The notes: generated by a model from the sequence alone, not told the origin. Positions 1,044-61,044 are shown, numbered from the stretch's first letter. The stretch: 64,000 bases of DNA from Eledone cirrhosa (GCA_964016885.1 OZ024740.1:307210001-307274000), one strand, 5' to 3'. Numbers and translations: made by a program.

Positions 1044-2214
1044 ATAAAATATAAATATCAACAGAGGCTCCCATTCAGTTAGGTATTTGCATGTTCACTC
1101 AGTTTGACATATAAATATAAATAAGATATGATCTGTTAAAATCTCTTTTTCCAAGGCAATGGTTGGAAAAAATAGACAGCATATTGGGCAAAATATTTTG
1201 TGATATTTGATTGTCCTCTTTATATTCCAAGTTCAAATTTTCGTCAAGTTAACTATGCCTTTTATCCTTCAAAGGTCAATGAAATAAATATCAGTCTACA
1301 AGTACTGGTCTGGATATAATCGACTATATCCGTCAAAGTGGTACAACATCATGGGCACAGTTTGATGACTGAAACCAGCAAAAGAAATCTCTATATGAAT
1401 CTAATTCTCGGGAATAATCAGTCATATGACAAAAAAAAAAAACAAAAAAAAAACATATGGAGATAAAGAAAACATTAACAATATGAACTGAACGTATAGT
1501 TTCAGTGGGTGAAAATGTTAAAACGGACTGTTGAAAAGTAATGGCTGATAGACAAGGGTGCCATCTTGCATTTGAGAAAAAAACAAAAACGTTAATGTTT
1601 CATCACCTAAATGGAATATTCATTACTTTACATCCGTTATCACTGATATGTTAGTATTCACCTCCTACTCCAAGTTTAACGTCAGTTGAAACTTTTTCAT
1701 CAGATCAGAATTGCATTCAAGCCAGAAAGATCTTCGCAACTTTAGAGATTTAACAGTGAAACCAGATAGTGTGGGTAATTTTTTCTCCACACCATTTAAT
1801 AAAAGCCCCATTAAGCACACACTCAGATATCAGCAGAAGAGGTGTCAAAATTGCCCCCAAAACGGTAGTATTACACACAAATCATTTATTACTTGCATAT
1901 TGACAATGCCTCCTGGTTCATTGTGGTTTCCTCACAGTAGATTATAATGATTTTTTTTTCTATCCTTATTAAAGGCGATTCCCTTAGAAAGATGGCTTGG
2001 GTTTTCTTTTCATTTAATGGCAAAAACAAAGGCATGGACATAAGCCTGGCACGTACAGATAAATGTGTGTATATGTCAGTATTAAGAATATTGTAACAAT
2101 GAGAGAATCAGACAAAGAAGAGAGTCGCTTTGAATAAATAAATAAACTCTTCTACATGTATGAAATGCTTCTTCCTCCCGCCTCCACACATCTGCTTTGT
2201 ACATGTATGTATGT

Positions 2215-2501
2215 AGAGTGGGACTGGCTTTGTGCAGTGCCTTTGCTCACTATAAAAGCTTCACGGCACAGGCATTGCTTTATATCTGGAGATCTCTCTG
2301 CACTTGTCGTCACATGGTACCATGGGCCCAGCACTATGTGTCAGTAATTGTCACAAGTGTAGTGTTTGTACCAGAGTTTTCAAGTCGCTGGCTGGACTAA
2401 AAAGTCACACTCGTTCAGTGCATCGGTAGGGGTTCTCCTACATGGATATAAAGTAGAGGCCGTACTCGAAAACGAGTTGGCAGCCACCATGTATGTATGT
2501 A
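2215..2501 (+). mobile_element. 5'-truncated copy of RTE-derived short element with (TGTA)n tail
   Basis: Near-identical to 7729-8012. Encodes a terminal C2H2 finger HKCSVCTRVFKSLAGLKSHTRSVHR* (2352-2429). TATG repeats on both sides. Confidence 0.75.
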
Positions 2502-2502
2502 A

Positions 2503-2810
2503 AGGCGTGTTACTTACTGGTTAGAGAATCGTAAGGTTGAGTGTTCCATTCTTGGACAGAGCGATACTTTGTGTCCTTGAGCAAGACACTTTATTTCACG
2601 ATGCTCTAGTTCACTCAGCTGTAGAAATGAGTTGCGGCGACACTGATGCCGAGCTGTATCAGCCTTTGCTTTTCCGTTGGACAACATTGGTGGCGTGGAC
2701 AGGGAAATCTAGTATGCATAGGCGACTGTTGGTCTTTCATAAAAACACCTTACTCGGGCTTGTGCCTCAGAAGGAAACTTTCTTGGTGTAAAACCCATGT
2801 TCCTTTACGA
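2503..2810 (+). mobile_element. Degenerate tRNA-derived SINE (family 2)
   Basis: GTGTCCTTGAGCAAGACACTTT motif after a decayed tRNA-like head. A related copy with clear A/B boxes lies at 53860-53966. Confidence 0.6.
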
Positions 2811-2826
2811 TGTATGTATTTAGCGA

Positions 2827-4193
2827 TGTTGGTATATTTTTTGATGTAACGCGTGAGATGGTTTGGTTTTGTACCATTGTTTGTTGTTCACTTTGGCGTG
2901 GCAGATGTAGTAGTTGTTGGCTTGGTAGGTGATTACGTGAATTGGTCTCTACCTTATAAGTGCTGTGGGAAATGTGTGACTTATGTCAAATGAATTGTGT
3001 GTATGTGTCTCAGTGAGTCGAGATGTGTGGCTGTATTTGTTACCATAGTCAGTGGTTGAAAGTTGTAGGTTGAAAGTAAAGCTGTCACTAACTTTATCTG
3101 ATGAACAATAACAAAAATTGATACTTTAAGAAGTTTTATTAAGAAATAACTTACATCGAAATTATTGTGGACAATACAGGAAAACAAAAAAGAACCAAGT
3201 GAATTGTATGTTATGTTTGTGGTTGGTTTGCATTAATACGATAGTAGTCTGACAAGATGCATTGAACTAACCTTTATCGGAGTGCCAAGACTGTCGAGAG
3301 ACGCTGGCGTTTTTTCGCTAAGCGCTACATTTATCTGCTTAAAGTGATATCAGACTCTGTCGAGTAACGTGTAGCGAGATCTGTCCACGCCCTTGAACCT
3401 TGGGTGACACCTAAAGGTCAAATTCTAGGTCACCGCCCTTTTGGTGTGAACAAGTTGATGCGTTGGCTATCCCCTAAAGGTGGGAGGTAGAAAGCGACAG
3501 GTATATAAAGCCTATATTTTCCCACCTTGAACAGAAAAATCGGAGCATTACGCTAGCAACTAACTATGTAAAGATTCACCGCTACCTTCAGGCCCTTGAG
3601 GTCTACAGAAACACAGAGACATCGGAGCACTACGAATTACAACAAGCTATGTAAAAATTCACCGCTATCACCAGACCCCAGTGGTCTACAGAGATACAGA
3701 GAGAATAGACTAACGACGACAACGTCAACCTACTACTACACACCATTCAGAGGTATACATACCATTACTCTTTCTCACTCACTATAGTCTCAGACTCACG
3801 ATGACAACGTCAACCTACTACTACAGACCATTCAGAGGTATACAAACCATTACTCTCTCTCTCACTCACTATAGTCTCAGACTCACGATGACAATGTCAA
3901 CCTACTACTACAGACCATTCAGAGGTATACAAACCATTACTCTCTCTCTCACTCACTATAGTCTCAGACTCACGATGACAACGTCAACCTACTACTACAA
4001 ACCATTCAGAGGTATACAAACCATTACTCTCTCTCACTCACTATAGTCTCAGACTCACGACAACGTCAACCTTCTCAACTTTTGGTAACTGTTTTTATTG
4101 GACTTTTTAATTCATTCACGTGAAGTAAACCATATATAAACTAAAATCTTTATTCTTGTTATAATCATTTCTAATAACCACATATAACCAACA
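2827..4193 (+). mobile_element. Possible solo LTR containing an 87-bp tandem array
   Basis: Starts TGTTGGTATAT and ends ATATAACCAACA (TG..CA with a short inverted repeat). TATATAAAG near 3502. No TSD found. Confidence 0.4.
3714..4072. repeat. 87-bp tandem repeat, about 4 copies
   Basis: ATGACAA unit starts at 3801, 3888 and 3975; units are nearly identical with no spacers. Confidence 0.9.
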
Positions 4194-58606: not shown

Positions 58607-59065
58607 ATAAAATAATTAAGTCAAATATGTAAAATTTGGCTTCGTTTATTATAAATTAAAAATTACTGCTATATATATTTCGGTGACAGCCATCATTGGC
58701 TGTGATCTCTTCAGGCAGTCCGAATTGGTGTGGAAAAGACAGGTACACATGTTGTTGAAGTGTGAATAACAACACACCCAGGAGCTGGACATATCGATGT
58801 ATTGACGGAGTAAAACACACTTCAACAACATGTGTACCTGTCTTTTCCACACCAATTCGGACTGCCTGAAGAGGTCACAGCCAATGATGGCTGTCACCAA
58901 AATATATATGGCAGTAATTTTTCATTTATAATAAACGAAGCCAAATTTTACATATTTGACTTAATTATTTTACACTACTCCGGAGTAAACAAACCAACTT
59001 GCGTACTTTGCCGAGTGCTCCAATCTGCATACTGAGGTGTTGTTAATCAACCAACATATACTCAA
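58607..59065 (+). mobile_element. Palindromic HHR mini-element, same family as the 23950-27185 PLE 3' end
   Basis: Arms 58607-58764 and 58816-58972. Intact HHR on minus at 58665-58719, mutated mirror at 58861-58915. The tail matches 23950-24200. Confidence 0.8.
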
Positions 59066-59246
59066 TATATATATATATATATATATATATATTACAGTGT
59101 GTTTCTGCCCAACGGCAAGAGCTCAGAAGTGGGGTAGTTACTGCTTATAATACTTACACTCTACTTTCTTAAATATCGAGTACTAAGTTAAGCAATGGTC
59201 TAACAAGTCTAAACTGATAACTATATATATATATATATATATATAT

Positions 59247-59878
59247 ACGAAAGTCTTCTCAATGGATTTCCGCATGGATTATCCATTTATCTTGAGACTT
59301 GAAACCGTGCGGTAAGGGTAATTATACCAGGTACAGTGAACTTTTAAAAATTTATTTTAAAACTTTTTCTTATTTGCTAAACCTTGAATATATATGTTCT
59401 GGCTCGTTAATTTATTAACCTGCCATAGAACCACATTGGCATACGGTTGGATAATACATGTGTCCCTATATGCATTTTGCATGTAAGAAAACATACTTTA
59501 TTATTATTAATCTCCCCTGGTCGAGATAACATTTTGGTCGTTTTAACTGCTGCTATTTCTAGTGGAAGTACATTGACCTTTCCACCCCTGCCTTCTATCT
59601 TTACACACGGCACTAGACAAGATTGCTTCTTCATCATACACTCTCATCCGGGAACAGTTCTGTATGGCGCCAGTTCGTGATTTGAACTCGGGAATTTTAT
59701 ATTCTCCGAGTGAGAAGAACCCTCTGACGAAAGTCTTTTTCTCAATGGAATTTCCGCATGGATTATCCATTTATTTTGAGACTTGAAAGCGCGCGGTAAG
59801 GGTAATTATAGCAGGTAGAGTGAACTTTTAAAAATTTATTTTAAAACTTTTTCTTATTTGCTAAACCTTGATTATATA
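59247..59878 (+). mobile_element. Non-coding ~480-bp HHR-containing unit in partial tandem (retrozyme-like)
   Basis: 59247-59395 repeats at 59727-59880. Complete HHR at 59719-59803. TA repeats at both ends. Confidence 0.7.
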
Positions 59879-60487
59879 TATATGAAAAACATGGGGAGAA
59901 GAATACTGCATGGTTGCACATGGATTACATATTATAAAATTAGTCCCTCATCAGTGATTTGCCAACGATCATTGGTATTTCATCGCATTAAAAATCATAT
60001 ACCTCAGGTTGGTGCGAGCAATAACGAATATAAGCTATTGGGACAAGTGAAACGCGTAAAACGAGTGAGACAAGTAAACAACATAGAAGGAAAAGCTAAC
60101 CGAAGATGGGAAGAAAAACAAGCAACATGGTTATTCGATCAGCATAAACTGGGTGAATTTCATGAGCGCTCAGCAAACAGACCTTTCGCTGTGAGTGGGA
60201 TGTGAGAAAGAAAGAATACGACACCTAGCGAACGGGGGGAAGTGAGAAGGGGAGAAACAGAGAGTGAGTGAGTGGAAGTGCGACGAAGAGGTCAGTCGAG
60301 AGAAAGTGTTAACTGACAGAGGGGACGAAAGAAGGTAAGAGAAACAGAGAGAACGGGGGAGTAGTAAGAGAGAAAGAGAGAAACAGATAATCGCAGTTTA
60401 GGTAAATATATGAAAAACATGGGGAGAAGAATACTGCATGGTTGCACATGGATTACATATTATATATATATATATATATATATATAT

Positions 60488-60919
60488 GACCAAAGATAAG
60501 TATGGTTCGTTGATTACTCAACGAATACAATTTTACAATAGATTAGAAGCGCTCAATAAGAAGTTTTCCTGGAGTTTTGAATATTATTCAAAATGTTAAC
60601 GAATGAAAAGTATTCTCATAATCAAAATATATACTTTATTATACATATTTCAAAGGTACTATGGTGTTTAAGTACGTTTTCATCAGACAAAATATATGAT
60701 TTGATATATGACATACCGCTACGGTCTTGATTATTCAATTCCAGTACTGCCAATACTGGAATTGAATAATCAAGACCGTAGCGGTATGTCATATATCAAA
60801 TCATATATTTTGTCTGATGAAAACGTACTTAAACACCATTTATTTTTTTAATTATCTATAATAAAGTATATATTTTGATTATGAGAATATTTTTCATTTG
60901 TTAACATTTTGAATAATAT
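60488..60919 (-). mobile_element. Palindromic HHR mini-element in (TA)n
   Basis: Arms 60581-60746 and 60754-60919. HHR on minus at 60634-60692 (CUGAUGA..GAAA-UAUGUA-UA). Confidence 0.75.
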
Positions 60920-61044
60920 ATATATATATATATATATATATATATATATATATATATATATATATATATATATATATATATATATATATATATATATATA
61001 GAGAGAGAGAGAGAGAGAGAGAGAGAGAGAGAGAGAGAGAGAAC

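Follow-up and report, generated by a model that had tools for sequence, protein, structure and literature searches.

Several unrelated retroelement families of the octopod Eledone cirrhosa very probably each occupy a short tandem repeat of their own, on a fixed strand and with the repeat at both element ends, with an endonuclease that nicks the repeat and priming there as the likely route. We base this on a 64,000-nucleotide (nt) stretch of the genome, hereafter the window (GCA_964016885.1, OZ024740.1:307210001-307274000; C1:307,210,001-307,274,000 in the 2,996-Mb assembly), and on relatives of its elements elsewhere in the genome. The window is AT-rich and dense in microsatellites, and holds R4/Dong-like, Tx1-like, RTE-related and Penelope-like elements (Table 1). 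A preliminary description had read it as a niche-partitioned ecosystem, in which each retroelement clade holds its own microsatellite, tail-generating elements create targets for others, and the whole helps to explain the microsatellite load. Microsatellite specificity is already known for all three targeting clades (Dong, Tx1 and Penelope-like elements). We conclude that targeting at the level of families is genuine and strong, that this habit is known, that the target motifs described here were not found in print, and that the ecosystem shrinks to the sharing of arrays by strand-opposed elements.

Junction motifs and strand bias

For eight families we examined the best 30 of up to 40 scored genome-search matches each, the window's own copy included; for Dong-like family A (Dong A) an additional 20 ten-kb stretches were taken around genome matches. 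The background was a 1-Mb sample of 100 evenly spaced 10-kb stretches, 80 of them from the four largest contigs. An element end was assigned to a motif when a 12-nt window no more than 6 nt from it matched at least 11 of 12 bases, strand-specifically, and background positions were scored identically. The Dong A query carried the first two flank letters, and the resulting bias is confined to those two letters. Perfect repeats (units of 2-6 bases, at least 12 nt) make up 8.3% of the background, with shares of 5.2% for AT, 0.94% for AC, 0.40% for AG, 0.34% for ACAT, 0.27% for AAT, 0.16% for ATC, 0.10% for AAG and 0.06% for AGAT. The junction rule was passed by few background positions (CATA 0.50%, TATG 0.51%, TATC 0.058%, GAT 0.11%, GAA 0.07%), with AT at 6.1%. 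Relative to this background, element ends in the 1-Mb sample were 90- to 1,700-fold enriched for three- and four-base motifs and 5- to 14-fold for AT.

Flank motifs at background frequency, or lacking strand bias, were the outcomes named beforehand as fatal to the preliminary reading, and neither was found. Across the genome-wide loci, 3' ends fell in CATA versus TATG at 49:1 for Dong A and B together, in TATC versus GATA at 21:0 for the Tx1-like family, and in TATG versus CATA at 17:0 for a 606-bp RTE-derived element. These same families carry the motif at their 5'-truncation points too, which marks it as target rather than tail.

Dong-like elements in (CATA)n and (TAA)n

Along 1776 nt the Dong A copy in the window matches a full-length copy at 100%, and the family is young: a genome search returned 921 candidates, and 40 of 40 scored matches were 100% identical over 411 nt. 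Full-length Dong A spans 4.2 kb with a single frame of 1174 amino acids (aa), intact in 5 of the 20 stretches. The frame carries RVT_1 (E 3e-25), zf-RVT (E 2e-5), a CCHC motif and the PD...E motif of a restriction-like endonuclease (RLE). The best solved relatives of its reverse transcriptase (RT) are R2 proteins (E 1.5e-28), and the closest named relative of the protein comes from Argonauta hians (65% identity over 61% of the query). Its N-terminus is predicted to form a three-helix domain (predicted local distance difference test, pLDDT, 85), with no Cys/His finger seen. The fold weakly resembles Myb/SANT-type domains such as Zeste (Z 5.7, root-mean-square deviation 2.5, 64 aligned) and TRF1 (Z 5.4), all below Z 8, and a Foldseek search with this domain returned nothing at E 0.001.

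In 27 of 30 Dong A loci, at least two CATA units stand no more than 20 nt from the 3' end (TATG in 0/30), and 18 of 21 5'-truncation points fall within CATA. Dong B is older (~85% identity), with CATA at 19/25 3' ends and 11/27 5' points; both families restart at the identical register, ACATAC. In the unbiased 1-Mb sample, 7 of 11 Dong A and B 3' ends lie in CATA. Dong C has a different target: in that sample its 3' ends adjoin TAA or mixed CAA/TAA (9/9), as do 4/6 of its 5' points for TAA. Families C, D and E end in (TAA)n and families A and B in (CATA)n, so that A and B lack the (TAA)n target of Dong proper that C, D and E possess. A quick RT tree of 42 rows splits the CATA families and the Argonauta protein from the TAA families and insect proteins (Shimodaira-Hasegawa-like approximate likelihood ratio test 100). 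The tree is rooted on no named outgroup, so we leave the direction of target change unclaimed; it contains no named R4/Dong rows, and one insect row is labelled Bombyx mori.

Three Dong-like copies had been placed at (CATA)n in the window. The young copy has the array on both sides, and the (-) fragment of family B has it at its 5' junction, its 3' end being absent; the third, an old family B copy, is weak when taken alone. A fourth piece, of the TAA-type family D, had been overlooked. A (GAA)n target considered for this piece was rejected, since in 29 relatives the element sequence continues at that point. The piece adjoins a Tx1-TTA-like fragment in the opposite orientation (13377-13567, +). 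Unique target-site duplications of Dong elements are unreadable within the repeats. At the 5' end of Dong A, we found no Rfam ribozyme match and no hit to a strict hepatitis delta virus (HDV)-like descriptor. Units of 14-24 nt are repeated 2-4 times beside some young Dong A insertions (loci L004, L053, L152, L162 and L167) and could stem either from priming more than once or from higher-order repeats that were already there.

Sequences near-identical to Dong A (window 5340-7100) also occur in sequencing runs of many organisms (word share 0.20-0.77 in 14 rows from 11 organisms), and run contigs carrying Dong A are ~98-99% alike in two organisms; either close relatives or horizontal spread could produce such similarity. 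Among the public runs listed as matches, 20 of 24 contain part of Dong A, and none of those listed is an RNA run. When metagenome contigs were queried with the Dong A protein, 26 pattern matches resulted, of which none was confirmed.

Tx1-like elements and a SINE in (TATC)n and (TTA)n

The two Tx1-like copies reported in (GATA)n were confirmed, in an array that reads (TATC)n on their own strand. The longer copy retains RVT_1 and zf-RVT and lacks the apurinic/apyrimidinic endonuclease (APE) part, which is present in relatives at 37% (PF03372, PF00078 and PF13966); matches to L1 ORF2p are weak. The family shows both the L1-group ORF2 layout (APE, RT, zinc finger) and sequence-specific insertion. 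We use the Tx1 label provisionally, from likeness and target specificity; for the RTE and CRE labels too, part of the assignment comes from motif likeness.

Among the 25 3' ends located (5 of 30 were not), 24 begin with ATATC, 17 carry at least two TATC units and none carries GATA; 14 of 34 5' points lie within TATC. A sister family ends in a different motif, (TTA)n, at 12 of 14 3' ends in the 1-Mb background. A transfer RNA (tRNA)-headed short interspersed element (SINE; 45641-45823, -) occurs in about ten further copies and occupies 2.5-2.9% of the background. Its ends resemble those of the Tx1-TTA family and both share the (TTA)n flank; the SINE is likely mobilised by that family.

RTE-related elements as users and makers of repeats

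The 606-bp element has fixed ends and 1274 genome candidates. Its positions 190-396 match (~69%) the region ahead of autonomous RTE-type frames (L168, L204, L242), and a relic C2H2 finger resembles the end of an autonomous RTE frame (28/35 nt; a weak match, pairwise E 6e-4). No autonomous partner with its 3' terminus was found in the 2 Mb examined. Its 3' flank is TATG at 17 and TA at 15 of 39 ends, 5' points behave likewise, and the motif on one side is correlated with that on the other (rho 0.67, n=27), so the TATG flank is mostly target and not tail. Four RTE-derived copies had been described in (TATG)n; three have it on both sides, the fourth at its 5' end only. The 5' 110 nt (window 7389-7500, with relatives in L023, L095, L155, L158, L163 and L171) remain conserved among subfamilies that are 75-90% identical; they include segments able to form hairpins and always begin with ATGT. 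This stretch may encode a structured RNA; no HDV-like ribozyme matched this 5' end.

Other RTE-like elements were correctly described as ending in (GAT)n or (GAA)n, and these are tail-makers, with the repeat at the 3' end only. GAT occurs at 28/38 3' ends versus 0/17 5' points, and GAA at 13/22 versus 0/49 (some 5' points in both sets may be alignment ends). The perfect run is longer downstream in 20/20 GAT and 22/24 GAA cases. Tails of the GAA family are mostly shorter than 30 nt, several reach 48-117 nt, and that of the window copy measures 1.1 kb. We also considered whether (TA)n arises from GAT tails and rejected this: TA occurs after 15/69 tails but also ahead of 10/59 5' ends, and several show matching duplications (rows include tandem pieces). 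An autonomous RTE family with C-terminal C2H2 fingers (L191:1-1270, L204, L168, L242) makes up ~1.9% of the background. Runs of (TA)/(TG) lie at its 5' end, and its 3' untranslated region (UTR) contains (GT), (AT) and (ATT) runs; it thereby spreads microsatellites as cargo.

Penelope-like elements and hammerhead inserts in (TA)n

The Penelope-like element (PLE) and hammerhead inserts of the window are flanked by (TA)n, as had been stated; the Naiad label given to the PLE was rejected, its GIY-YIG endonuclease being C-terminal rather than N-terminal before the RT, and its motif DKT/DKP rather than DKA. The 690-aa frame opens with the RT and closes with GIY-YIG; it has the CxCX5C linker, CxxC and CxH but not CCHH, and RWR stands in place of RWK. 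Of 12 other copies, 11 carry DKT; the window copy and its own locus read DKP. From its predicted protein, the unit is a member of the Hydra clade as described, not of Naiad. A third, very AT-rich Hydra-like fragment lies at 62990-64000 (-). The family ends in (TA)n at 21 of the 27 loci with the end in view (3 of 30 had none in view) and at 11/13 ends in the unbiased 1-Mb sample.

Hammerheads were detected by a custom strict pattern. It found no canonical hammerhead inside 54047-58547 or in this family's copies, and five motifs in four (TA)-flanked inserts of the window (24139-, 31910-, 45134+/45123- and 60686-). The 1-Mb sample contains 70 such motifs versus 0 in shuffles, and 53 of the 70 lie within 200 nt of (TA)6, compared with 26% of random positions. 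A common hairpin family (21664-21858) has right ends in TA in 31/35 cases, and a pattern scan found no canonical hammerhead in it or its relatives. Penelope, hammerhead and other TA-flanked inserts all use (TA)n, which is therefore a crowded niche.

Table 1. Features of the window; positions are counted from its first nucleotide.
Feature	Position	Strand	Details	Evidence
606-bp RTE-derived element	2215..2488	+	5'-truncated, (TATG)n both sides	
(CATA)n array	5231..5331	+	5' junction of Dong A copy	
Dong-like family A	5333..7108	+	young 5'-truncated copy (RT C-part, CCHC, RLE)	open reading frame, Pfam
(CATA)n array	7109..7139	+	3' junction of Dong A copy	
606-bp RTE-derived element	7395..8000	+	non-autonomous, full length, (TATG)n both sides	
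606-bp RTE-derived element	8019..8359	+	5' part only, (TATG)n at 5' end only, tandem to 7395-8000	
Tx1-like long interspersed element (LINE)	8841..11590	-	5'-truncated, frameshifted; own-strand (TATC)n at 3' end (GATA on + strand)	
Second Tx1-like family	11618..11937	-	3' fragment, (TATC)n both ends, head-to-tail with 8841-11590 copy	
Dong-like family D	13520..14498	-	fragment, TAA-type family, not adjoining CATA	
Dong-like family B	18590..18978	-	fragment, internal deletion, no 3' end; (CATA)10 at 5' junction 18979-19018	
RTE-like 3' end	20537..20733	+	(GAT)n tail 20697-20733	
Hairpin insert	21664..21858	+	common, (TA)-flanked; relatives 39822-40032, 29083-29236	
Hammerhead insert	23944..24240		(TA)-flanked; motif 24139(-); relatives 31706-31960, 58610-59064	
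Hydra-like Penelope	25526..27195	-	second fragment, (TA)13 at 5' junction	GIY-YIG E 0.004
606-bp RTE-derived element	37854..37944	-	3' end, own-strand (TATG)n both sides	
Dong-like family B	41661..44708	+	old broken copy; <3 CATA units at 5' side (~41640-41650), 3' terminus missing	
Hammerhead pair	45030..45180		inverted, 45134+/45123-, ending at (TA)36	
RTE-like 3' end	45371..45641	+	(GAT)n tail 45622-45641	
tRNA-headed SINE	45641..45823	-	family prefers own-strand (TTA)n	
RTE-like 3' end	47052..48478	-	3' end 48144-48478 and 1.1-kb (GAA)n-type tail 47052-48143	
Hydra-like Penelope	54047..58547	+	inverted 3' piece and 690-aa RT/C-terminal GIY-YIG frame 55382-57454; (TA)n both sides	
Hammerhead insert	60487..60915		(TA)-flanked, inverted; motif 60686(-)	

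Other features of the window include a broken, GC-rich (59%) RT/restriction-endonuclease element at 14520-17492 (+), presumably CRE-like, whose few relatives among the examined loci show no microsatellite flank. There are also a putative Helitron-like peptide (28057-28404, -) and an old RTE fragment (35946-37600, +). Open frames at 49347-49885 (-) include a region rich in Thr and Val and, possibly, a segment resembling a host exon at the C-terminus; the frame tested had no Pfam match. Local tandem arrays at 3707-4072, 12813-13109, 24927-25239, 32290-32671 and 52803-53195 have units of 87, 25, 7, 17 and ~173 nt, respectively. Scanning the window against Rfam yielded nothing but microRNA look-alikes, driven by repeats and below the gathering score, and no hammerhead family.

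Array sharing and the microsatellite load

Polarity within shared arrays was strict in the 1-Mb sample. In CATA arrays, Dong A/B lie on the CATA strand (9/9) and the 606-bp element and its relatives on the TATG strand (14/14); in TAA arrays, Dong C lies on TAA (11/11), Tx1 on TTA (11/11) and the SINE on TTA (26/27). In TATC arrays, Tx1 lies on TATC (7/7) and no element was found on the GATA strand. At least two unrelated families occur in each of the CATA, TAA and TA array types. Dong thus holds CATA and TAA, and Tx1 holds TATC and TTA; with two motifs per clade and motifs shared, targets belong to families and not to clades.

The partition by clade, with RTE tail-makers supplying targets and the resulting ecosystem accounting for the repeat load, is accordingly quite improbable as a whole, although each family does keep its own motif and strand. 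Neighbourhood and cargo speak in its favour: across the 3' array of Dong A a second element follows in 19/30 copies (another Dong in the same direction in 12, a 606-bp-type element in the opposite direction in 7), and the untranslated ends of one RTE family contain (GT), (AT) and (ATT) runs. The share of microsatellite bases inside or within 30 nt of the examined families is also considerable for some motifs (AAT 65%, AGAT 31%, ACAT 30%, AAG 29%), but it is 13.8% for AT, the bulk of the load, and 7.6% for AC. Overall, 12,066 of 80,712 bases in microsatellites with units of 2-4 bases (15%) are touched by families that themselves fill 15.9% of the sample. These percentages are lower bounds, as the repeat library is incomplete. 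Of 28 CATA arrays of at least 24 nt, 15 have no listed neighbour within 30 nt. Nor do tails appear to create targets for others, for no examined family except the makers ends in GAT or GAA. These counts point to the microsatellite load as a resource rather than a product of these families.

Mechanism and alternative explanations

We propose that each family's endonuclease would nick its repeat and that reverse transcription would be primed at the nick. Recognition may be provided in Dong by the RLE together with the N-terminal three-helix (Myb-like) domain, in Tx1 and RTE elements by APE endonucleases, and in Penelope by GIY-YIG; Dong A may require ~40 nt of repeat upstream of the nick. Opposite polarity could then follow from two enzyme types nicking opposite strands of one repeat. 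Abundant microsatellites would be a resource for these families, to which duplications at insertion and the tails of RTEs give back a minor share. Several points weigh against this account. The best-30 locus sets are skewed to young copies, and the unbiased sample offers few ends, 3 to 14 in most families. Specificity is loose in the 606-bp element, which is split between TATG and TA, and in Tx1, where ~40% of 3' ends and more than half of 5' points fail the 11-of-12 rule. The modelled Myb/SANT likeness of the Dong A N-terminus speaks weakly, reaching at most Z 5.7 and staying under the tool's distinctive level. Tree rows for old families were assembled from broken copies, one row (at most 24 aa) was removed, and family F forms a long branch. 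No empty (pre-insertion) allele was seen, and contigs of eight runs gave no joint across the window insertion. A 40-nt footprint would also predict at least 85 nt of perfect repeat at ~10% of Dong A sites, whereas 12/29 were observed.

The opposite view, in which the repeats come from tails encoded by the elements or repeat-rich DNA simply favours the survival of insertions, is hardly credible for the targeting families. It does hold for the GAT and GAA RTEs, and it gains something from (TA)n, which is common (6% of positions) and enriched just 5- to 14-fold. However, neither tails nor survival can produce the motif at variable 5'-truncation points (18/21 in Dong A vs 0/17 in the GAT family, Fisher p 4e-8), the strict strand bias or the fixed register, and 5'-junction and strand tests refute this view for Dong A/B/C and Tx1. 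It is also unlikely, if less sharply so, that register is RNA-guided, that is, that transcripts extend into the flanking repeat and the units they carry anneal to the nicked DNA, thereby determining motif and strand, with an endonuclease that is less specific. The fixed restarts (ACATAC in Dong A and B, ATATC in Tx1) and the few units that join some tandem pieces would suit such pairing, but long upstream arrays in truncated copies require selection on the DNA side, and the 3' flank of the 606-bp element tracks the local target and not the donor tail.

Compatible with endonuclease targeting, though doubtful, is the possibility that Dong A seeds its own target by adding units at the 5' junction with each insertion, through long or out-of-register duplication or slippage. 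Perfect CATA runs at Dong A have a median of 54 nt upstream versus 17 nt downstream (29 of 31 loci examined, p=7e-5), also in 5'-truncated copies, and the asymmetry is absent from Dong B, Tx1 and the 606-bp element. Summed flanks exceed 87 nt, the longest of 26 background runs of at least 30 nt, at 12/29 sites, and at some sites variant units match on both flanks over 24-46 nt. Yet imposing a 40-nt upstream binding requirement on background arrays yields nearly the same medians (52/19 nt) with no net gain, long perfect arrays with no Dong neighbour are common, and the matched variant units lie in higher-order repeats and are hence not unique duplications. Some net duplication at Dong A insertion is nonetheless likely. 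A bolder extension can be offered only tentatively: RLE and APE retroelements, twice found on opposite strands of one repeat (CATA/TATG and TAA/TTA), might, with Dong A lengthening its target at each insertion and the families thus continually renewing sites for one another, form a self-sustaining, strand-partitioned community that builds three- and four-base microsatellites, in which an active, intact Dong would be a natural tetranucleotide-specific integrase.

Relation to known elements

Published microsatellite targets form a short list: PMC3812793 gives TAA for Dong, ACAY for Waldo alone (an R1-clade APE element), AC for Mino, TC for Kibi and TTC for Koshi. Dong inserts in TAA in most insects, molluscs and cnidarians and has a Myb-like N-terminus (PMC7998251). 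Like Bombyx Dong, DongAg, DongBg and ostracod Dong, the elements described here combine a single frame of RT, CCHC and RLE with a three-helix N-terminus and insertion in microsatellites, and families C, D and E end in (TAA)n as described (PMC3812793, PMC7998251). Families A and B differ in occupying (CATA)n and in branching deeply apart from those with TAA. In Octopus vulgaris, Dong-R4 was reported active with five families and 1129 insertions, and a term search of that paper found the word 'target' nowhere (PMC13282606). A 5' HDV-like ribozyme was demonstrated for Bombyx Dong (PMC3774820).

Tx1 targets include (TC)n for Kibi, (TTC)n for Koshi and (TTCC)n/(TTTC)n for crocodilian families (PMC4494074). 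The families here share with these the L1-group affiliation, a fixed strand in pyrimidine-rich microsatellites and head-to-tail stacking, and differ in their motifs: (TATC)n in one family, and in its sister (TTA)n, which is the Dong target read on the opposite strand. The Penelope unit agrees with the Hydra-clade elements of PMC8557442 in its C-terminal GIY-YIG, DKT, CxCX5C, CxxC, CxH, lack of CCHH, inverted 3' piece and (TA)n. Hydra-1_Obim is listed there with a (TA)n preference and no pseudo-long terminal repeat (pLTR; File S1). Our unit differs in RWR for RWK and in having no hammerhead found in its copies, and is likened to Hydra-1_Obim by description only. RTE was not named among target-specific groups in the passages of PMC4640811 consulted. 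The GAT and GAA elements behave as RTE LINEs with repeat tails, with the repeat at 3' ends only (PMC2887409), and the 606-bp element resembles bipartite non-autonomous RTEs (PMC5786205) in joining 5'-UTR-like and frame-end-like portions of an RTE; unlike described RTEs, it prefers AT/ATGT repeats on both sides. Unrelated elements aligned un-nested in microsatellites recall the SaTar Mutator-like element (MULE) arrays of guayule and rice (PMC5907723). SaTar MULEs are DNA transposons, whereas here retroelements with three endonuclease types keep a fixed polarity. Our literature search found no published (CATA)n target for Dong and no (TATC)n or (TTA)n target for Tx1, and on niche partitioning it returned unrelated work; Repbase and Kojima and Fujiwara 2004, which lay outside that search, may record them.

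Implications

In a single genome, one set of Dong families has (CATA)n as its target and a sister set has (TAA)n, and one of these families is intact and very young, which makes a change of target in R2-like proteins testable. Three motifs join the few microsatellite targets published so far for retroelements. Octopod microsatellite markers of the CATA, TATC and TAA types will often be multi-locus. Counting shows that the elements make use of the repeats without being the chief origin of the load. If true, upstream lengthening by Dong would be a route of microsatellite growth besides replication slippage.

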